A stretch of DNA of 27,862 nucleotides from a virus (lineage: Duplodnaviria; Heunggongvirae; Uroviricota; Caudoviricetes), in the IMG/VR virus record IMGVR_UViG_2561511241_000007, positions 1 to 27,862 of that record; one strand, written 5' to 3'. The position numbers were made by a program, and so were the translations under genes. Below are positions 3,107-26,971 of this stretch, piece by piece. How positions within the stretch are numbered: the stretch's first letter is position 1; each line of letters begins with the position of its first letter. The notes below the pieces were generated by a model that was not told the origin of the DNA, ran no database searches, and was given only the letters and a program-made list of their open reading frames with translations.

Positions 3107-3295
3107 CTATGAATGCTGTTTTTTAGACTTATCAGCCCCCCGCGCAACAGGTGTTCTCTTATCAGAGACAATCCCAGCTGCAGTGGCAATTTCGCGTACC
3201 CGTTCGGGTAATTCTTTATCTTCATACTCACCGGCCCGAATAATCTCAACACGCATACCGTCCGGTGACCATTTCAGATCTTGTTTCAGGATCAT
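3107..3295 (-). CDS. hypothetical small protein
   Basis: 62-aa ORF filling the gap between the capsid gene and the connector gene; no recognisable motif. Confidence 0.3.
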   Translation of the reverse strand: MILKQDLKWSPDGMRVEIIRAGEYEDKELPERVREIATAAGIVSDKRTPVARGADKSKKQHS

Positions 3296-3345
3296 GATTC
3301 TTTCACCTGTCAGAACAGGGGCGCACTTCTGCGCCCCCTGAATGA

Positions 3346-8386: not shown

Positions 8387-8868
8387 CAGTCTCTCGCTTT
8401 TAAAAGCTCCGCCAGCGGATCAACATCATCCGGTCCGGCAATATTTACTTTAGCCCGGCTTGCCGGTGACATACCAAACTCTGCAAGCATTGCCCGGATC
8501 CGCTTCCAGGCATCCGCTTTCATTGCCGCCGCGGGGTGCGCCTTAATCAGTACATCACCGCTCTGCGTTTCCGTGCGGTAGGTATACCCCTCAACATCGA
8601 GTGTTTCGCAGTGATGCCGATATTCGGTATAGGCTTCCACCAGCAACTCGAGTGCACGCGCATCAAGCTGAGAAATGATCCCTTCCGCATTCAGCTCTTC
8701 CGCCATTCGCCTGAACCAGTACTTCCCCTGTGCCCCTAAATGCTGCGGAATTTTAGGGAGACCTTTTTCATCCTTTTTAGCGGTTTTTTTTGAGTCTTTA
8801 ACGGGGCGCTTTGAGGGGTTGCCTCGTATCAAATGCAGGCGTGGCGGGGTTTTCGGAGGTCCTGACAT
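8386..8868 (-). CDS. terminase small subunit (P27 family-like)
   Basis: 160-aa ORF with a basic N-terminus, immediately upstream of the large terminase. Confidence 0.75.
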   Translation of the reverse strand: MSGPPKTPPRLHLIRGNPSKRPVKDSKKTAKKDEKGLPKIPQHLGAQGKYWFRRMAEELNAEGIISQLDARALELLVEAYTEYRHHCETLDVEGYTYRTETQSGDVLIKAHPAAAMKADAWKRIRAMLAEFGMSPASRAKVNIAGPDDVDPLAELLKARD

Positions 8869-9015
8869 AATCGGTCTTACCTATCAATCGTTTGTTCACA
8901 TTTCCAAAAAAAGTTTTCGAACCTGCGGCGATGTGAGGAAGGGTCAGGCGGCGGTACTGAGCTGCCAGGGTTGCAGAGATTTGACCCGCCCCTCCCCTAC
9001 AGATGGGAACTGTTA

Positions 9016-9402
9016 TCAATTAATGCGTTCGCGCGCTGTTTTTGCTTTATGGCAGGGCCAGCACAGACTCTGCAGATTACTGTCTGCATCCGTGCCACCA
9101 TGAGCTTTCGGAATGATGTGGTCCACAGTTCTGGCTTCAACGGCTCTCCCATCGCGCAGGCAGTTCTGACACAGATGATTATCACGCTTCAGTATGCGCG
9201 CACGTATGGCATCCCATTTCGTGCCATAGCCACGCTGGTGGCGACTTAGTCCGCGTTGATGCTGTACCCAGCCTTCACCACGATGTTTATCGCAGTAGCC
9301 AGAGATGTCTGTTGTTTTGCCTGCGCAGCCACGCTTACGGCATGCGCGGGGGATTTGTGATGGCATAGAACTTCGCTCCGCTAAAAAATATTCTGCTCTC
9401 AC
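9016..9402 (-). CDS. HNH endonuclease (terminase-associated)
   Basis: C-terminal motif CQNCLRDG...VDHIIPKAHGG...NLQSLCWPCH is a classical HNH; alternative start at 9366 has a GGAG Shine-Dalgarno. Confidence 0.85.
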   Translation of the reverse strand: MRAEYFLAERSSMPSQIPRACRKRGCAGKTTDISGYCDKHRGEGWVQHQRGLSRHQRGYGTKWDAIRARILKRDNHLCQNCLRDGRAVEARTVDHIIPKAHGGTDADSNLQSLCWPCHKAKTARERIN

Positions 9403-9408
9403 CGTCGT

Positions 9409-9591
9409 TCAGTTCTGCAGACACTGCCGAACACCGTCGACAATTTCGCAGACCTGAGAAGCCATATCGAAAAGCTGGCGCGCCTTATCCATGCTGACGC
9501 ATCCCACCAAGAAAAAAGGCACTAGTATCGCTACCAGTGCCCATTTCGCCGTTGTTCGCGGCATTCTGTGTGTCCAGTGTTTTCTGCTCAT
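9409..9591 (-). CDS. putative lipoprotein (o-spanin-like?)
   Basis: 60-aa ORF from ATG 9591 with a signal peptide and lipobox (LVGC); directly downstream of the endolysin; no partner i-spanin seen. Confidence 0.45.
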   Translation of the reverse strand: MSRKHWTHRMPRTTAKWALVAILVPFFLVGCVSMDKARQLFDMASQVCEIVDGVRQCLQN

Positions 9592-9605
9592 AACACACCT
9601 GGTTA

Positions 9606-9989
9606 TCAGCGTTTCAACTGAAAGTGAGGCCCGTCTTTCAGTGTTTTCCAGTCCCCGCCCCATTCGATGGCAGTTCCCAGCTCTGCGGCAGCCTGCTTAA
9701 ATGCCTGCGCTATTTTCTCGTACAGAGGCCAGTCCCATGACACCTGGCTGCCAACCCAGGCAACAACATCCACCGCATCACCGGTCAGGTGGCGGCTGTT
9801 CATGGTCTGGCTTTTCCCTTCCGCGACCAGCTGTTTCTGGCGTTCTTTCGTGCGCAGCCCTTCCGTAATACCGAAATCAACCTCCGTCAGCTCCAGCGCA
9901 CGGCGAACGACAGCAACCAGCTGTGGTTTAACGCCCTCCAGATTCTTTTCGCTGCGACGACTAAATCTGAATTTACCCGACATATTCAC
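9606..9989 (-). CDS. endolysin, M15-family peptidase (L-alanyl-D-glutamate peptidase-like)
   Basis: 127-aa ORF sharing the VKP..L...VRRALEL...DF.I..G.RT...HLTGDA.D pattern with the T5-type endolysin as recalled. Confidence 0.8.
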   Translation of the reverse strand: MNMSGKFRFSRRSEKNLEGVKPQLVAVVRRALELTEVDFGITEGLRTKERQKQLVAEGKSQTMNSRHLTGDAVDVVAWVGSQVSWDWPLYEKIAQAFKQAAAELGTAIEWGGDWKTLKDGPHFQLKR

Positions 9990-10261
9990 CTCAACAATGG
10001 AAAGATTTTTGTGACGTTCCCGCGCGCGCGTATCACCAGCACGCAGAACAGCAGATTAAAAAACACTTCAGGCCAGCCCGTTGCTAACGGGCGACCACAC
10101 AGATAGCTGAGGGGCGCAAAGGCATACAGCAGCATCAGCAGCCAGGCCAGCCATGACATCAGCGGTTTATGTCTGGAATCACGGCGACGATAAAAAAAGA
10201 GCGCCAGCACGATAACCGTGCATAACGCCACATTCAGCAATCCGGGAAGGTTACTTAACAT
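9986..10261 (-). CDS. lysis-cassette membrane protein (holin partner or antiholin candidate)
   Basis: 91-aa ORF from ATG 10261 with several hydrophobic segments; overlaps the holin stop and the endolysin start. Confidence 0.45.
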   Translation of the reverse strand: MLSNLPGLLNVALCTVIVLALFFYRRRDSRHKPLMSWLAWLLMLLYAFAPLSYLCGRPLATGWPEVFFNLLFCVLVIRARGNVTKIFPLLR

Positions 10262-10733: not shown

Positions 10734-10886
10734 TTATTCAGATTTGCGCAGTAAAGGCAGGAGGACGACCAGCGCCATCGCCACCAGCACACCATCTGCC
10801 AGCACCGACATCAGTCGTCCGGTGAAATCCACCACCACTACCAGAAACAGCAGGATGGCAGCCAGTACAGGGCGCGCACTTTTCAC
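10734..10886 (-). CDS. small hydrophobic protein (GTG start overlapping the TerB stop)
   Basis: About 50 aa, almost entirely hydrophobic; GTGA start/stop overlap with the upstream TerB-like gene suggests translational coupling. Confidence 0.3.
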   Translation of the reverse strand: MKSARPVLAAILLFLVVVVDFTGRLMSVLADGVLVAMALVVLLPLLRKSE

Positions 10887-11308
10887 AGATACTGCTCCAG
10901 TGGAAGCTGAAGCGCCTGTGCAATTTTCTTGAGTTGCGCTTCTTCCTCCGGAGCAATGCCGTCCTGGTCTGCGATATCCAGACACAGGCACAGCACATTC
11001 ACTGCGTCATCGGTACCGGCAACATCAGCCAGCTGACGAAGGGCTTCGGCATTGGCAGAACGCGGTGACGCTTCATAACGGGCGCGGATATTTGCACTCA
11101 TTTGTGCAATCTCACCGGAGAACGGCGCAAAGGCAGGAAGCGCTGCAATGGTTTTCTCCAGCACTGCGATTTCTTTCGCATCACAGGTGCCGTCAGCAAA
11201 AGCAATGGAATACGCACCCCAGACGGTCGCCTCCACCGCATCGCGGTTCTCCATTTTCTTTACTTCAGTAATGGCCTTGCGGGTTTTCTTTTTGAAAATA
11301 CCAAACAT
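10883..11308 (-). CDS. TerB-domain protein (tellurite-resistance TerB family-like)
   Basis: 141-aa ORF with AAGGA Shine-Dalgarno; composition and pattern match TerB-like proteins. Confidence 0.6.
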   Translation of the reverse strand: MFGIFKKKTRKAITEVKKMENRDAVEATVWGAYSIAFADGTCDAKEIAVLEKTIAALPAFAPFSGEIAQMSANIRARYEASPRSANAEALRQLADVAGTDDAVNVLCLCLDIADQDGIAPEEEAQLKKIAQALQLPLEQYL

Positions 11309-11565
11309 CGTGACTTTTCCTTTTAGTGGGTGAGCCTGCGCCTGGGGGTGACCAGCCCACAGAGAAAGTCACACTGACCATCCCGTAAGCTCACCCCTGA
11401 AAGGCTCTGTGGTTTTTGATGTGCGCCGGGCGTGACGCAAAGAAATGAAATAAGACTTACCTGAAATTAAGGTTAATCTGAGGATTTAAACCATTTTTAA
11501 TGCTTAGTAATATAAATACGTCTCTCTGGAGGAGAGAGATGCTTATTCTTCTTCATGGACTTTGT

Positions 11566-11600
11566 CCCGCGGCTTTAATCCGACAGCCGCGCCCTTTTTT
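11566..11600 (+). terminator. rho-independent terminator (plus strand)
   Basis: Stem CGCGGC / GCCGCG followed by CCCTTTTTT. Confidence 0.5.
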
Positions 11601-11624
11601 CGCCAATATAAACCTGGTTGAACT

Positions 11625-11650
11625 CATACAAAAAGCTCGCCGAAGCGAGC
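11625..11650 (-). terminator. rho-independent terminator (minus strand)
   Basis: Stem GCTCGC-CGAA-GCGAGC followed on the minus strand by TTTTTGT. Confidence 0.55.
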
Positions 11651-11682
11651 CTGTTAAAAGTATATTTACCGTTACAAATGGA

Positions 11683-11765
11683 CCGTCACCGGGGACTCGA
11701 ACCCCGCACCACAAAACAACAATACGTGTTATGCACTCTTACCCGATGAGTTAGTGACGGTTTTG
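11683..11765 (-). other. tRNA-like element (possible pseudo-tRNA)
   Basis: Minus-strand sequence has a perfect 7-bp acceptor stem (CCGTCAC/GTGACGG), D-stem, canonical T-arm (CGGGG-TTCGAGT-CCCCG) and a 3' TCCA, but an aberrant ~30-nt anticodon/variable region. Confidence 0.4.
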
Positions 11766-11812
11766 TGTTATGTGGGAATCCAGCCTGACGACAGAATTAC
11801 TGGAACACCTTG

Positions 11813-11845
11813 CAAAAAAAAGCCAGCCACCAGAGACTGGCTGGC
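11813..11845 (-). terminator. rho-independent terminator (minus strand)
   Basis: Stem GCCAGCC / GGCTGGC with a 10-nt loop, followed on the minus strand by TTTTTTTT. Confidence 0.65.
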
Positions 11846-12016
11846 AAATTACAAAGTTTAAATGATTCATCATACAATCGTCGTTACAGGGGAATCCTGC
11901 GGTGCAGCAAGATACAAAAATGTAAGCAAACCAACAATAAGCAAGCACAGCATATTCGGAATTAGTTATAATTTTAACGATGCAGTGCTTATTCAGCATG
12001 CAATTCTGCAAATTAC

Positions 12017-12043
12017 CAAAAAAAACCGCCTGCTAAGGCGGTG
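12017..12043 (-). terminator. rho-independent terminator (minus strand), downstream of the tRNA array
   Basis: Stem ACCGCC / GGCGGT followed on the minus strand by TTTTTTTT. Confidence 0.65.
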
Positions 12044-12403
12044 GTCAAATCAGTAAGTGCTGAAGAGTATTATTATAATACAAGTGAGGTGTCGGGTGCC
12101 TCCCGAAATACCTGACATTCCATCAGATACTGTAGTTTCCCGGCTAAACTACTTAAACCACCCCGCACATGGAGTTCACCTCATTTTGTGATGTTAACAA
12201 CATCGGGATAGTGCATAATCAGCCCCTGCCAGGAAATATCAAAAATCCCACCAATAATGCACTATTCCGATAGCGTCAAAAAACACAGCACCGAAATCAT
12301 AACTGGTCTCCGTTATAATTCGGGAGAGCGATAAAGGATATACGAGACCTTTCCCCGCGAAAAAAACGCCAGTGCTGAAAAACCTATACCTCATTTGTTT
12401 TTC

Positions 12404-12478
<75 letters not shown>

Positions 12479-12481
12479 ATA

Positions 12482-12559
<78 letters not shown>

Positions 12560-12560
12560 C

Positions 12561-12637
12561 TGGACCGCCACCGAGGACTCGAACCTCGCACACTCAACTT
12601 AAAGGGTTAACACTCTTTCTTGGTGAACTGGTGGCGG
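12561..12637 (-). tRNA. tRNA-like gene, anticodon uncertain (UUU read in a loop with C33), possibly degenerate
   Basis: Perfect acceptor stem and canonical T-arm (CGAGG-TTCGAGT-CCTCG); D-arm lacks canonical features and position 33 is C. Confidence 0.45.
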
Positions 12638-12638
12638 T

Positions 12639-12714
12639 TGGTGGCCCTTGCTGGATTCGAACCAGCGACCTGGCGATTATGAGTCGCTCGCTCTCACCAC
12701 TGAGCTAAAGGGCC
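12639..12714 (-). tRNA. tRNA-Ile2 / Met (anticodon CAU), ileX/ileZ-like
   Basis: Canonical 76-nt cloverleaf with perfect acceptor and T stems; closely resembles E. coli ileX as recalled. Confidence 0.85.
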
Positions 12715-12740
12715 GGGCCGAAAATAATAATCAGATTAAA

Positions 12741-13454
12741 TCAAAAATCAAGCCCTTGCATAGATACATATCTGTCTGGCGGGAAGCCATAATAGCGGTG
12801 AAATACAGAGATAAAGTAGGATCTACTTGAATAACCGCATTTTTCTGCTACAGCCTGTCCATATCCATGCCGGGAGCATAACATATTTACAGCAACCCGC
12901 ATCCGTTCCTCAAGTAACAAATTACTGAACCTGAGACCTTCATCCTTGAGTTTTTTCTTTAACAAGCTCTCACTCATATGCAACTGTAGAGCAATCGCAC
13001 CAAGCGTCCAGCTTGCTGATATATCTGTTTGAATTATCGCTCTGACTTTGGCACTTATACTGGATAAACATCCACTTAAAAATAATAACATCCGTTCATC
13101 TGATTCAAACAACGACAGGCAGGCCATCATAAGAAACATGTCCGTGGTCTCTCCGGAAAGTCTCTGGCTGGTAATTAAAGCCACAGCCAACGCAGGATTG
13201 TTGGGTTCCTGCGACAAGTAAAGCGGAATGTCAGTCAGAGGAGTTCTTGTCAGCTTATGCTGACTTTCCAGATATTGACTTACTATAGAATGGTTTATAT
13301 CGACAATTTTAACTTTGCCATAATGCATAAGGAAAAGCTCCCTGATGCATTTGGTGGCCAAAACAACTGAGCCGGGCTTAAGTGACAACGTATCCTTTTC
13401 AAGAAAAATATTAATTGGGGAGCAAACCATGATAACTGAACAGACAACAGCCAT
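12741..13454 (-). CDS. AraC-family transcriptional regulator, AppY-like
   Basis: 237-aa ORF, AT-rich; C-terminal AraC HTH; N-terminus and overall pattern resemble DLP12 AppY as recalled. Confidence 0.75.
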   Translation of the reverse strand: MAVVCSVIMVCSPINIFLEKDTLSLKPGSVVLATKCIRELFLMHYGKVKIVDINHSIVSQYLESQHKLTRTPLTDIPLYLSQEPNNPALAVALITSQRLSGETTDMFLMMACLSLFESDERMLLFLSGCLSSISAKVRAIIQTDISASWTLGAIALQLHMSESLLKKKLKDEGLRFSNLLLEERMRVAVNMLCSRHGYGQAVAEKCGYSSRSYFISVFHRYYGFPPDRYVSMQGLDF

Positions 13455-13979: not shown

Positions 13980-14654
13980 TTACAGTGAAAATGCCGCCTT
14001 TTGTTTTGAACGTGTTCTCGTCACGAACAATAAAGCCTCACTATCCAGCCGATGAAAAGTGTGTTTCATTGCAACCCAGTGACCAGTAAATGTTTTGGAC
14101 CAGTTTTTAGTTGTCACTCCCGCCAGTAATGCCAGCTCCTGGTATTCATAACCTTCCCCACCAAAAAGTTCTGCTTTTACTGCCTGCGCCGCCAGCCAGA
14201 TTAATTTTTTCAGGCGTTCCTGCGTTTTCCCTGCAATTTTTCTGGTACCGGATTGAGTATTAAATTCATTCCACGCCCACTGTGTTATCGCGATCTGATA
14301 TTCCCAACAAATACTCCCGCTGTAACACCACAACAACCAGGCTTTATGATGTTCTTCAAGAGACAGAACAGCCCGCCGCCACGATGATGTCGAAAACTCA
14401 ACCGGACTGACCAGAGGAATTGACGTCCCCTTCGCCAGCGATTGCTTTCCCGGGATTGGTGGATAATCCCGCGTTATCATTTTTCCAGTCACTTCATCGC
14501 GGTACCGGATTTTTTTTCGCCTGTAACGCCCTGTATCGAACATGGCATTCTCTTGCCAGGCTTCAAGCTGACCTTTTGTTGCCCCACTCAAATCAGCGGT
14601 GGCGATAATGAGCTGCTCGCGCACAAACTGTAAATACTGGTTATTCATGCGCAC
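13980..14654 (-). CDS. late-gene antitermination protein Q
   Basis: 224-aa ORF directly upstream of the promoter/terminator pair and downstream of rusA, the canonical Q position. Confidence 0.65.
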   Translation of the reverse strand: MRMNNQYLQFVREQLIIATADLSGATKGQLEAWQENAMFDTGRYRRKKIRYRDEVTGKMITRDYPPIPGKQSLAKGTSIPLVSPVEFSTSSWRRAVLSLEEHHKAWLLWCYSGSICWEYQIAITQWAWNEFNTQSGTRKIAGKTQERLKKLIWLAAQAVKAELFGGEGYEYQELALLAGVTTKNWSKTFTGHWVAMKHTFHRLDSEALLFVTRTRSKQKAAFSL

Positions 14655-16513: not shown

Positions 16514-16669
16514 TTACTCCTCAGGTTCGTAAGCTGTGAAGACAGCGACCTCCGTCTGGCCGGTTCGGATTCGTACCTCGCAGAGGTCTTTCCTCGTTAC
16601 CAGTGCCGTCACTATGACGGTTAAACAGATGACGATCAGGGCGATTAGCATCGCCTTTTGCTGCTTCAT
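16514..16669 (-). CDS. hokD: Hok/Gef-family small toxin (HokD/RelF-like)
   Basis: 51-aa product matches E. coli HokD as recalled; the frame is open a further 19 codons upstream to 16726. Confidence 0.9.
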   Translation of the reverse strand: MKQQKAMLIALIVICLTVIVTALVTRKDLCEVRIRTGQTEVAVFTAYEPEE

Positions 16670-17293
16670 AGCCTGCTTCTCCTTGCCTTTCGGCACGTAA
16701 GAGGCTAACCTAGATTTGCCGTTCATAGATTGAGCCTCAGATTAATGTTAAGCGTCTTGCAGGACGCGTAATGTTAACTGGGGCTTTTCTCTATCTGCCT
16801 TTGGTGTTCATGCCTGAGACAGATAGCCTCAAGCACCCGCAGCCATTCTACTTAACTCCCGTTACCTCGCCAATATGAAATCAGTCAGAAAGGCGATCCA
16901 TAAGAACAACAGCAAGGCAATAAATTGCCATTACAGCAGCAATAGCCAGCGCACATTTGAGAACCAGCACCACAACCTCCTGTATTGGACGTACACCAGT
17001 CCTGATAAATATGAGGCTGTCTCGTCAGTGATTCAATACAACTATTGGGTATAGTTTCTGTGATTTTGTTCTGTAGAAATGGAACACAACAACCAGTCAC
17101 CACCAGCACTTCTTTAAATACGCCAAGTCCGACGCAAGCTAACTTTCTAGTCCGCTTTGAGCGAAAAGCAGACTGTCACGCGTTGAAGTTAATTGTATTA
17201 CTTAGATAAACACTATCATTTTCCTGACGTTAAGTTGTATCTTTGATAGGATTAAAAAACGTATAGATAGCTTATGCTACTGAGGGAATAAAA

Positions 17294-18103
17294 ATGACGA
17301 AAATTAGTGAACGATGGAAGCACAATGGCATTACTGAAGGTTATTGCAATATTTGTGGGAAATATGGCTTGCTCACAAAAGATCATGTTCCTCCAAAGTG
17401 CGCCATAACCTTAGGCCCTGTTTTGCAGAAAACAGTTAGCGAATTTTTTGGTATTCAGGAACCAGTTAAACCATTAAATGCTAAAAATGGCTCTTATTTC
17501 AGAACCATTTGCAGCCACTGTAACAATAAGGTATTAGGTGGGCTCGATGTTGCAATTGAAAATGTAACAAAGTCCTTTAAAGAACAGTTAAGTCGATATA
17601 TGAATGGTATGAATGTATATCCATTCATTAGAATACCTTTTGATAGCATATCTTTCACTAAGGCTATGATTGGGCACGTGCTATCAGCAACTTCAGTTGA
17701 AGATTGTAAAAAAGAACCCGTAGATAGCCCCTTCTATACACCTTTAAAGGATTATGTTTTGGGTAAAAATTCAAGTTTTGAGGAAACTCATGATATTTAC
17801 TACTGGTTTTACCCACACAGAATGCACATATCCGCTCAAAGTGTAGCATTTATGAACGAAGGACATGTGGCATTTATTTGTGCTTTACATTTTTTCCCTA
17901 TCGGTTTTATTATCACAATGAAAAATGAAGGAACATACCCTGCCCACTCTACAAAATTAGAACTTGAAGATAAATTCCTTACATTTAATATGACCTCTAT
18001 AAATTATGAGTATACGACATTTCCATTTGTAAATCTTAAGGGAAACCAAATGTATGCGATAAGCAACGGTCATACTTGTGTGAGTTATCCAATAATTAAG
18101 TGA
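17294..18103 (+). CDS. HNH/zinc-finger nuclease-motif protein with an uncharacterised C-terminal domain (cargo gene)
   Basis: 269-aa ORF with a GAGGGA Shine-Dalgarno; N-terminal C-x2-C...DH...N...C-x-H-C-N pattern; much lower GC than neighbours; opposite strand to all flanking phage genes. Confidence 0.7.
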   Translation: MTKISERWKHNGITEGYCNICGKYGLLTKDHVPPKCAITLGPVLQKTVSEFFGIQEPVKPLNAKNGSYFRTICSHCNNKVLGGLDVAIENVTKSFKEQLSRYMNGMNVYPFIRIPFDSISFTKAMIGHVLSATSVEDCKKEPVDSPFYTPLKDYVLGKNSSFEETHDIYYWFYPHRMHISAQSVAFMNEGHVAFICALHFFPIGFIITMKNEGTYPAHSTKLELEDKFLTFNMTSINYEYTTFPFVNLKGNQMYAISNGHTCVSYPIIK

Positions 18104-22403: not shown

Positions 22404-22460
22404 TTTCTGGTGACGTTTGGCGGTATCAGTTTTACTCCGTGACTGCTCTGCCGCCATTTT
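22404..22460 (+). ncRNA. dicF: DicF small RNA (ftsZ-targeting antisense sRNA)
   Basis: Sequence matches the 53-nt K-12 DicF as recalled except the last base, followed by a T-tract; lies between ydfC-like and dicB. Confidence 0.7.
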
Positions 22461-26881: not shown

Positions 26882-26971
26882 TGGCGGAGAGAGGGGGATT
26901 TGAACCCCCGGTGGAGTTGCCCCCACTCCGGTTTTCGAGACCGGTCCGTTCAGCCGCTCCGGCATCTCTCC
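26882..26971 (-). tRNA. serU: tRNA-Ser (anticodon CGA), serU-like
   Basis: 90-nt minus-strand sequence with a long variable arm and anticodon loop UCUCGAAAA, ending CCA; matches serU as recalled. Confidence 0.9.

Follow-up and report, generated by a model that had tools for sequence, protein, structure and literature searches.

A probable non-coding leader built from RNA modules between the tRNA array and TerB of a lambdoid prophage at serU

What does a lambdoid prophage keep in 1.1 kb of DNA that lies between its tRNA genes and its lysis genes and appears to encode nothing? The question is raised by the window analyzed here (the whole 27,862-nucleotide [nt] stretch of virus record IMGVR_UViG_2561511241_000007), in which a gap separates tRNA-Gly from the TerB gene (Table 1); an original prediction, made from the letters alone, had seen stacked terminators and candidate small RNAs (sRNAs) there. 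A chromosomal prophage of the porcine Escherichia coli ETEC4090 (NZ_CP122620, locus at about 2,024,900-2,026,100) matches the window at 100% identity, and strains ETEC1749 and RM10740 also carry this prophage. The annotation of the identical ETEC4090 locus, converted to window coordinates, puts the late genes on the minus strand; the window is a serU-integrated lambdoid prophage with a minus-strand late operon. We consider it likely that the gap is a non-coding leader of this late operon at the moron site of a probably defective prophage, recombined from four RNA modules and furnishing both sRNAs and insulation. This reading starts from what was observed directly: the features themselves, their conservation, covariation and strand, their modular distribution, and their ties to known families. 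Prophage features of this sort are already known; the RNA families found here are not catalogued.

The gap contains no convincing open reading frame (ORF), just as had been claimed for it. Seven ORFs of 44-86 amino acids were compared with Pfam and none scored above threshold (the single match, at E 0.07, fell below the cut-off). In comparison with three homologues, third codon positions showed no excess of substitutions and the insertions and deletions (indels) were not multiples of three. Protein coding of the gap was rejected on these grounds, namely ORFs lacking a Pfam match at threshold and substitution patterns that are not codon-like. The gap is instead rich in terminators: scanning 10800-13000 together with shuffled controls gave 11 terminator-like sites, several of them overlapping, against 2.4 +/- 1.6 in the shuffles. 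The three strong sites among the 11 are the minus-strand terminators that the original prediction had listed, here called T1, T2 and T3, and the scanner found each where it had been placed. T1, T2 and T3, and also the plus-strand terminator of the unit that we call block C, each have a GC-rich hairpin and behind it, on the transcribed strand, a U-run. Three features had gone unnoticed, and are added here: a tRNA-like gene (E2), a further terminator-like site near tRNA-Gly (T0), and a hairpin of about 87 nt.

The gap is, as far as sequence comparison can tell, a recombinational mosaic of RNA modules with joints at conserved hairpins, because its blocks, insert and TerB leader combine differently among prophages. 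We compared it by BLAST with 20 loci from complete E. coli genomes and one phage record, and took genome counts over a set of 5426 complete E. coli genomes. About 750 nt separate tRNA-Gly from the holin in most related prophages, and this interval consists of block A (about 75% identity to homologues) and block C (80-90% identity), which are adjacent to each other. In the window the two are separated by a 410-bp insert found in about 16 of the 5426 genomes, and block C is followed by a TerB module. In O157-type prophages, a T3-like terminator, a GCGCCACGCCCGGCGC hairpin and the TerB leader come directly after the last tRNA. Only 2 of 50,697 phage records have blocks A and C, and sequenced phages therefore contribute little to this comparison.

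Block A ends in a structured RNA of about 190 nt, sRNA-1, which stops at T1. Sequences like it are present in 762 complete genomes, with at least 80% of sRNA-1 covered in at least 227 E. coli genomes (at approximately 70-80% identity), and in every locus inspected it lies about 200 nt past tRNA-Gly, after tRNA-Thr and tRNA-Gly. Its minimum free energy corresponds to a z of -2.9. From 16 sequences that include sRNA-1 and the hairpin 5' of it (alignment A2), RNAalifold derived a consensus of 69 pairs made up of this long 5' hairpin, a four-way scaffold and T1. In the consensus 97.3% of cells are paired, against 41-53% when the partners were slid, and eight pairs are compensated (among them UA:8/CG:6 in the outer helix and, in hairpin 4, GC:7/AU:6/GU:3); for four of five measures, at most one of 500 shuffles matched the observed value.

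The long imperfect hairpin (23 + 4 + 6 pairs) directly 5' of sRNA-1 has a fold z of -3.6, and none of 200 shuffles was equally stable. Its helix 1 is 97.5% paired in A2, with three compensated pairs and numerous G-U pairs, such as those at columns 31/130 (GU in 11 of 15) and at columns 51/110 (UG in 10 of 16); because these G-U pairs form on minus-strand RNA only, the strand of both the hairpin and sRNA-1 is the minus strand. The loop sequence GGAGAUUUUGUAUUUCCUGGCAGGG is strongly conserved, and a promoter-like TTGATA-16-GATTAT lies in the loop (12242-12215, minus). Conservation of this hairpin as RNA implies that its transcript starts farther upstream, and we regard the hairpin as a candidate processing site of the RNase III type. 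Further upstream, some 80 nt past tRNA-Gly, T0 has counterparts in the homologues (a hairpin and U-run at the equivalent place); the terminator scan missed it, which marks it as weak, and it is possibly a partial terminator of the tRNA operon.

The family to which sRNA-1 is most readily compared is STnc100 (RF02076). A relaxed Rfam search (E up to 10) of 11200-12800, a region of 1.6 kb, aligned model positions 1-206 of this family with 12208-12014 (minus) at 27.3 bits (E 0.0014 for 1.6 kb, 2.4e-4 for 271 nt), with GGUGAA..CC..GCGG..GG in common on the 5' side and an exact CGGGAGGCACCCG-CACC on the 3' side. The Rfam comparison proposed as a check on the candidate sRNAs thus gave a sub-threshold STnc100 match for sRNA-1, and no match inside the gap at curated thresholds. 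All parts of the STnc100 scaffold can be recognized in sRNA-1, that is, the outer helix, a 5' GGUGAAUCCCC...GCGG.GGGG hairpin, a 3' CCGGGAGGCACCCGG hairpin, and then a variable region and a terminator, and it occupies the STnc100 location in the prophage late region between the tRNA array and TerB/holin. STnc100 and the related PasD1/PasD2 (EcOnc13) resemble sRNA-1 in their late-operon orientation between Q, tRNAs or morons and the lysis genes, in an outer helix closed by a GGUGAA..CCCC hairpin and CGGGAGGCACCCG(G/A)CACC, in their internal variable hairpins, variable single strand and intrinsic terminator, and in length (about 170-210 nt). The outer helix of sRNA-1 is GAGGUG/CACCUC, whereas that of STnc100 is GUGGUG/CACCAC, and the first hairpin of sRNA-1 is of a CUCC..GGGG type; unlike STnc100, sRNA-1 stands behind a long conserved hairpin and is always linked to tRNA-Thr/tRNA-Gly.

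Scanning for an 18-nt motif in one genome per species, we found the same layout in dozens of Enterobacterales (GUGGUGAAUCCCCC-N-GCGG-GGGGC, then variable hairpins and CACCGGGAGGCACCCGGCACCAC, and after these a 3' stretch that varies and a terminator), in at least 60 copies that are often in tandem. A covariance model built from the window sRNA-1 subfamily alone (model R1) aligns full-length to Enterobacterales loci at 20-35 bits. Among homologues of sRNA-1 itself, the variable stretch before T1 exists as two unrelated alleles, and locus L019 (a prophage of strain M8) joins one scaffold type to the other 3' allele; on account of these two observations, sRNA-1 fits, by analogy, a conserved scaffold with an exchangeable targeting region, as has been described for PasD and STnc100. 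The same L019 prophage contains, at 3128-3341 of the locus, a bona fide STnc100 (107 bits) together with an iraM gene, upstream of degenerate tRNAs, in addition to a window-type sRNA-1, the insert and block C; both scaffold subfamilies are therefore present in one late leader. Elsewhere, tandem STnc100-type scaffolds in two to four copies, each with its own variable 3' stretch and terminator, were seen in Enterobacter, Pantoea and relatives (L108, L112, L115, L086 and L098), and in L056, L057, L068 and L144 a variant scaffold stands directly before a start codon, like a 5' leader.

Block C contributes an RNA in the opposite direction. For this place the original prediction had proposed a plus-strand sigma-70 promoter and terminator; the unit is real, conserved and covarying, with the correction that the promoter spacer is 17 nt rather than 16. 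The RNA, of about 81 nt and convergent with the late operon, would open at +1 with a 5' hairpin; a linker rich in pyrimidines (CUUAUUCUUCUUCAUG) and a GGAC-UUU-GUCC hairpin would lead to the terminator CGCGGCU-N10-AGCCGCG, which is followed by CCCUUUUUU and ends at 11600 (7-bp GC stem, U6) and which the scanner did not list because of its 10-nt loop. Promoter hexamers and spacing are kept in the prophage copies, and in relatives block C sits directly upstream of the holin. For all 52 distinct variants that we collected (from the genome loci and by scanning viral contigs for a motif), the fold is the same, with three hairpins over 80-83 nt, in spite of at least five different 5'-stem sequences and three versions of the terminator stem in mixed combinations. 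In an alignment of 28 sequences 96.2% of cells are paired, against 39-53% with slid partners, and five pairs are compensated (for example, UA:16/CG:11 and CG:20/UA:8). One position is U-G in 12 sequences and would be A-C on the other strand, which points to a plus-strand RNA. The paired regions of sRNA-1 and block C are thus conserved among homologous prophages with compensated changes, and the claim of one or more sRNAs in a late-region position is supported by the conservation and covariation of these two units. The block C RNA matched no Rfam family, including AgvB, AsxR and Esr41, at E up to 10.

A copy of block C that is 71% identical lies in the yodB-serU spacer of 5336 of the 5426 complete E. 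coli genomes (L008 2593-2682, which in MG1655 is NC_000913.3 at about 2,043,092-2,043,181, plus strand). This core-genome copy has a promoter (TTTAAA-17-TATGAT), a 5' hairpin GCUUUC-AAAA-AAGC, the GGAC hairpin, and a terminator with U6, and the similarity runs from the -35 hexamer to the terminator only. Nothing is annotated there in the RefSeq record of MG1655, it has no Rfam match, and we found no sRNA of the yodB-serU spacer described in the literature. An origin of block C as a yodB 3' untranslated region gained by aberrant excision was considered and is unlikely, because homology is confined to the promoter-to-terminator unit and the prophage copies are diverse and numerous. It is a tentative suggestion, and one that we hold to be more doubtful than not, that the block C RNA founds an uncatalogued sRNA family whose core-genome copy is a domesticated, unannotated, prophage-derived sRNA gene near serU, and that in the prophage this RNA and the STnc100-like RNA, as a convergent pair, guard the lysis genes and talk to host mRNAs.

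How does this arrangement compare with known prophage RNAs? In prophages of enterohemorrhagic E. coli (EHEC), the moron site, 3' of pR', carries convergent pairs of sRNAs bound by Hfq (Tree et al. 2014, PMC4104026), and PasA-D have been validated in enteropathogenic E. coli (EPEC; Pearl Mizrahi et al., PMC8550237). PasA/PasC and PasD/STnc100 adjoin Q, tRNAs, TerB, DUF3927 and holin (Zhu, Shabalina, Storz, bioRxiv 10.64898/2026.05.13.724894), and an STnc100 lies 75 nt downstream of stx2 (PMC12370729). Hfq association or expression is reported for the STnc100/PasD-type family (PMC8550237, PMC12370729), and Hfq crosslinking and immunoprecipitation (Hfq-CLIP) and the ligation and sequencing of RNAs that interact (RIL-seq) place convergent Hfq-bound sRNAs at the corresponding prophage position (PMC4104026, PMC8550237, bioRxiv 10.64898/2026.05.13.724894). 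The locus has the layout known for the anti-sRNAs AgvB/AsxR and the convergent pair at the moron site, with a sense and an antisense sRNA converging 3' of pR' between moron/tRNA genes and the next phage ORF: sRNA-1 (ending at T1) and, in the insert, a candidate sRNA-2 (ending at T2), both on the late strand, face block C, and in relatives the T1 and block C terminators are about 10-90 nt apart. Block C also resembles the AgvB/AsxR-type antisense partner in having a highly conserved 3' part and a variable 5' part; its RNA, at about 81 nt, differs from the 51-60 nt of AgvB/AsxR, and a sponge activity of block C would be an analogy. With PasA/PasC (EcOnc51/52) it has in common a length of about 80 nt, its own promoter, an intrinsic terminator, an orientation against the late operon by holin/TerB, and, in relatives, a second downstream terminator that would give a longer form. 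A predicted antisense RNA of about 80 nt with an intrinsic terminator next to TerB/holin is found here, at 11520-11600 on the plus strand. Block C is unlike PasA/PasC in sequence; the reported seed of PasA overlaps its terminator, whereas block C has the GGAC-UUU-GUCC hairpin and a core-genome copy.

The sequences themselves gave a different answer from the layout. We searched with PasA, PasC, PasD1 and PasD2 of E2348/69 (coordinates from PMC8550237 Table S6) using blastn at short-word settings, and PasD1/PasD2 gave only chance 10-13-mers; PasA/PasC gave a single 13-nt match to the region, GCTGGCTTTTTTT in T2, on the wrong strand relative to the late operon. Direct homology to these four RNAs is therefore rejected for want of BLAST similarity. 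AgvB and AsxR (RF02702, RF02703) and Esr41 had no match at E up to 10 in 11200-12800, and the identities AgvB, AsxR, Esr41, GcvB, Qrr and VqmR, among others, were likewise rejected (no match, or matches far below threshold). The sequence tests failed for PasA, PasC, PasD, AgvB and AsxR, and STnc100 was sub-threshold with its scaffold in common; the locus has the architecture and neighbors of a convergent sRNA pair at a moron site, made from different sequence families.

A different point of comparison is the tRNA operon itself. 3'ETS-leuZ, reportedly the subject of a 2015 study by Lalaouna and colleagues, is said to be a regulatory RNA derived from the 3' external spacer of a tRNA operon and ending at the operon terminator. 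Like it, sRNA-1 lies in the 3' spacer of a tRNA operon, at about 200 nt past tRNA-Gly, and the hairpin in between is conserved as RNA; unlike it, sRNA-1 is much larger and has an STnc100-type scaffold, and its co-transcription and processing are proposed here from the sequence.

The insert adds material of narrower distribution; its first 200 nt have no relatives beyond the roughly 16 genomes that carry it. A promoter-like element (8 of 12, which is under the 9-of-12 threshold of the scan in the window; TATACT instead of TATGCT in the strain A10 homologue) precedes sRNA-2 and is the best-conserved part of the insert in an 80%-identical homologue (L021). The RNA, of about 130 nt, would have a GU-rich 5' end, a 7-bp hairpin AUCUUGC-UGCACC-GCAGGAU, an AU-rich linker, and T2 (GCCAGCC...GGCUGGC and U8), with a fold z of -2.0; in L021 the T2 stem is kept and the loop changed. 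Rfam gave weak sub-threshold matches only (VqmR, Qrr and GcvB). We treat sRNA-2 as a candidate RNA gene, the weakest of our RNA calls.

Beyond T2 lies E2, an 82-nt degenerate tRNA-like gene that keeps its 7-bp acceptor stem (CCGTCAC/GTGACGG), D-arm, canonical T-arm GGUUCGAGUCC (CGGGG-TTCGAGT-CCCCG), T73 and encoded CCA. ARAGORN calls it an odd 'tRNA-Val(aac)', with the anticodon forced by sacrificing the D-stem, and an Rfam search admitting E up to 10 gave no tRNA (RF00005) match. Paralogues of E2 are E1 (12561-12637) and an odd prophage 'tRNA-Lys(UUU)' that is second in lambdoid tRNA arrays; alignment with these shows a 5-nt insertion in the anticodon region of E2 and loss of its anticodon stem, and the acceptor and T stems of E2 and E1 differ by compensated pairs (E1 has CCGCCAC/GTGGCGG and CGAGG/CCTCG). 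In Yersinia phage YeP1 a homologue of E2 is annotated tRNA-OTHER. We rejected E2 as a functional tRNA gene or a tRNA-Sec-like one, since it has lost the anticodon arm and fits no tRNA model. Its sequence has no relation to tRNA-Ser, and we therefore also rejected it as a partial copy of the attachment site at serU. T3 follows E2, and in O157-type prophages (L147 and L148) the T3 terminator comes after the last tRNA and ahead of the TerB leader; E2 and T3 may be the relic of a second tRNA-operon end that arrived with the TerB module.

At least 810 E. coli genomes, those of O157, O145 and O111 among them, have the fourth module, the TerB leader, upstream of TerB at about 85% conservation. The interleaved 8-bp repeats between 11328 and 11412 that had been likened to an H-type pseudoknot ending in a T-tract are present and both helices are invariant in six homologues (77-95% identity); the pseudoknot itself did not find support in the form proposed, and conservation does not extend to the T-tract after 11412 (O157 prophages have TTGGT there), which makes a plus-strand terminator there unlikely. 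The pseudoknot model has 97.7% of cells paired and one compensated cell, and a nested long-hairpin model has 94% paired and nine further pair types (one-sided, mostly wobble); neither rises above shuffles. A similar long nested hairpin is predicted in the window and in the O157 homologue, and as a model it fits the TerB leader as well as the pseudoknot does.

Any account of how the gap works has to consider where transcription would start. In phage lambda (pR'-tR') and for StxS, the intrinsic terminators of the late leader are ignored only by Q-modified RNA polymerase. Directly after Q the window has a candidate pR' (TTGCAA-17-TATATT, 13975-13947, minus) and, about 50 nt downstream, a GC-rich hairpin (AAAACCCGCC..GGCGGGTTTT, 13896-13873, minus), an arrangement like that of lambda, which may give a short pR'-tR' transcript similar to lambda 6S RNA or StxS. 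Unlike such a transcript, the region studied here lies, at 1.6-2.6 kb downstream of pR', beyond an AraC-like gene and a tRNA array with a promoter-like site of its own (TTGATT-16-TATTAT, 12751-12724, minus, ending about 10 nt before tRNA-Ile2). Because this site precedes tRNA-Ile2, it suggests that the prophage tRNA array is expressed without need for Q.

Taken from the sequence, the transcription, processing, Hfq dependence, targets and insulating role of these elements might be pictured as follows. In the lysogen, the tRNA array would be transcribed from its promoter-like site, and those transcripts that pass T0 would carry the long hairpin and sRNA-1 and stop at T1, with cleavage at the hairpin releasing sRNA-1; the released RNA would act in trans by Hfq-type base pairing through its variable stretch, as is supposed for STnc100/PasD-type RNAs. 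The lineage-restricted insert would add a second promoter-to-terminator unit, ending at T2, and the relic of a tRNA-operon end (E2 and T3). From its own promoter, the block C RNA would pair with read-through late transcripts about 210 nt upstream of TerB, and possibly with trans targets as well; it would be the antisense partner of a convergent sRNA pair, with the structured TerB leader as the fourth module. T0 to T3 and the convergent unit would thereby keep Q-independent transcription from tRNA and sRNA promoters out of the TerB-holin-endolysin genes, and during lytic growth Q-modified polymerase from the candidate pR' would read through the terminators.

Several observations weigh against this account. 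The 27.3 bits of sRNA-1 do not reach the STnc100 gathering score of 47 bits, and close homologues in 13 other loci are all below it too; because these homologues are sub-threshold and a true STnc100 stands elsewhere in L019, we read the window sRNA-1 as a probable separate subfamily, a divergent member of an STnc100/PasD superfamily. Model R1 had no match at E up to 1 in PasD loci (L003 and L005), and its E-values for the Enterobacterales loci are optimistic because these were preselected by an 18-nt motif that lies within the model. The covariation is drawn from a handful of recombining lineages and not from many independent events, and sRNA-2, of which there are four distinct sequences without covariation, is for that reason only a candidate. 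T0 might stop most transcripts of the tRNA operon ahead of sRNA-1, homologues do not keep the -10 hexamer of the promoter-like site that lies in the loop of the hairpin, and parts of the region may be decaying, given that the prophage seems defective. A reading confined to cis effects, in which hairpins and terminators are insulators, processing signals or recombination scars and the released RNAs have no function in trans, has several points in its favor: stacking of terminators ahead of lysis genes suffices for selection, similar runs of hairpins and terminators precede the holin in all relatives, module boundaries coincide with conserved hairpins as at recombination hot spots, and trans action of these sequences (targets and Hfq) is argued by analogy. 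We nevertheless think this reading unlikely, in that a terminator would require nothing near the elaboration and conservation of sRNA-1's four-way scaffold, which belongs to a family with reported Hfq association or expression (PMC8550237, PMC12370729), and block C has its own conserved promoter and persists as an isolated core-genome unit far from lysis genes.

Two further explanations read the elements at the level of protein or of DNA. Block C could be conserved for a late-strand peptide of 32 residues (M/V-K-K/N-N-K...G-L-N-P-Q-I-N-L-N-F-R) encoded before the lysis genes, with other short ORFs perhaps genes as well; against an RNA-only reading, the 32-codon frame (present in relatives such as L010 and L012) is open in 34 of 46 distinct variants with its ATG/GTG start kept, 15 of 52 changes (29%) are synonymous where 19% are expected, and in some strains RefSeq has a 'hypothetical protein' under parts of the region. 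The frame is broken in the window type, however (19 amino acids at 11555-11496, frameshifted), and is cut to 16 amino acids by 1-nt indels in at least two other lineages; polymorphic sites per codon position number 16/11/15, with no third-position excess; the conserved residues fall on the antisense promoter, at its -35 and -10 hexamers; no such ORF exists in the core-genome copy; the U-G pairs favor a plus-strand RNA; and the other ORFs have neither a Pfam match at threshold nor a coding pattern of substitutions, all of which makes the peptide very unlikely. A reading at the level of DNA would make the long inverted repeat (12280-12194) a cruciform or operator that controls a promoter within its loop, and would have proteins bind the TerB-leader repeats; in its favor are the promoter-like hexamers within a highly conserved loop and the invariance of the two 8-bp repeats without covariation. 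The many G-U pairs of helix 1 would turn into A-C mismatches both on the opposite strand and in a cruciform of DNA, the compensated pairs preserve an RNA helix, and the -10 hexamer that homologues do not keep counts here as well; we give this DNA-level explanation the least credence, as highly improbable.

Should the leader of RNA modules that we favor be borne out, it would extend a known theme. Moron-site prophage sRNAs (AgvB/AsxR and PasA-D) rewire host regulation in EHEC and EPEC, and the locus suggests the same architecture in prophages of porcine ETEC-type (enterotoxigenic E. coli) and commensal strains, with different RNA families. Two such families are proposed here, an STnc100-like subfamily fused to a phage tRNA operon and an antisense RNA absent from databases. 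A whole subfamily, that of sRNA-1, escapes the Rfam gathering thresholds although at least 227 complete E. coli genomes carry it, and if the core-genome copy of block C is expressed, K-12 would have an overlooked sRNA of phage origin. The terminator stack and convergent RNA also constitute a testable model for protection against constitutive tRNA and sRNA transcription leaking into holin and endolysin in the lysogen.

Table 1. Features of the gap and of the surrounding late region, in window coordinates
Feature	Position	Strand	Description	Basis
T0	12278..12324	-	weak hairpin CCCGAAUUAUAAC...GUUAUGAUUUCGG, then UGCUGUGUUUUUU	sequence and fold
Long imperfect hairpin	12194..12280	-	23 + 4 + 6 pairs; directly 5' of sRNA-1	
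sRNA-1	12018..12207	-	structured RNA of about 190 nt, ending at T1	covariation, Rfam, conservation
sRNA-1 four-way scaffold	12182-12086	-	four hairpins, UCGGGAGGCACCCGA the last of them, inside an outer helix GAGGUG/CACCUC	
sRNA-1 variable region	12085-12043	-	single-stranded or AU-hairpin	
T1	stem 12042-12025, U8 to 12018	-		terminator scan
Promoter-like element of insert	11949..11977	-	TTAAAA, 17 nt, TATGCT	read from sequence
Candidate sRNA-2	11814..11942	-	about 130 nt	fold and terminator
T2	stem 11845-11822, U8 to 11814	-		terminator scan
E2	11679..11760	-	82-nt degenerate tRNA-like gene	ARAGORN, alignment
T3	11628..11652 (stem 11652-11633, then U-run)	-	AGGCUCGC-UUCG-GCGAGCUUUUUGU, 26 nt past E2	terminator scan
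Block C RNA	11520..11600	+	about 81 nt, convergent with late operon	fold, covariation
Block C promoter	11485..11513	+	TTTAAA (11485-11490), 17 nt, TAATAT (11508-11513)	
TerB 5' leader	11309..11450	-	hairpin GCGUCACGCCCGGCGCAC 11438-11421; repeats 11412-11328; free Shine-Dalgarno AAGGAA; ATG at 11308	
Repeat pair 1	11328-11335 / 11389-11396		GGGTGAGC/GCTCACCC	
Repeat pair 2	11357-11364 / 11405-11412		CCACAGAG/CTCTGTGG	
Block A	12403-12018			BLAST, 20 loci
410-bp insert	12017-11606		separates blocks A and C	
Block C	11605-11415			BLAST, 20 loci
TerB module	from about 11450 downwards		after block C	
Antiterminator Q	13980-14648	-		ETEC4090 annotation
TrmB-like pseudogene	between Q and AraC-like gene	-		ETEC4090 annotation
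AraC-like helix-turn-helix gene	12741-13454	-		ETEC4090 annotation
tRNA-Ile2(CAT), tRNA-Thr, tRNA-Gly	12714-12404	-		annotation and tRNA calls
1.1-kb gap	between tRNA-Gly and TerB		region under study	
TerB	11308-10883	-		ETEC4090 annotation
DUF3927, two holins, M15 endolysin, tail genes	after TerB	-		ETEC4090 annotation
tRNA-Ser(CGA) = serU	26882-26971		marks integration site	tRNA call

The prophage is probably defective, because head genes are missing and several late genes are partial in the annotation. In the annotation of L001, the stretches at about 8600-10000 and 16700-17800 contain a partial small terminase, a partial tail chaperone, and an IS481-family transposase beside hokD, and portal, large terminase and capsid genes are absent between the lysis and tail modules.

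The tRNA array holds a tRNA-like sequence of its own: E1, of 77 nt on the minus strand, lies between tRNA-Ile2 and tRNA-Thr and received no ARAGORN, Rfam or PGAP call. Its homologues are called tRNA-Lys(UUU) in L025 (1456-1531; PPompW prophages) and in L015. E1 and these homologues have the anticodon loop CCUUUAA, with C33 where U33 is near-universal; G18G19 and U8 are missing as well from the window copy. In the yahM region of E. coli (BW25113 342,039-342,130), a 92-nt stretch that most E. coli genomes carry is 73% similar to E2, and may be another ancient tRNA-like relic. Outside the gap, Rfam matches at gathering level were obtained for IS009 (41-239, minus), for sok (16664-16838, minus, with hokD annotated alongside) and for DicF (22405-22456, plus), which are known RNAs of Qin/Rac-type lambdoid prophages.

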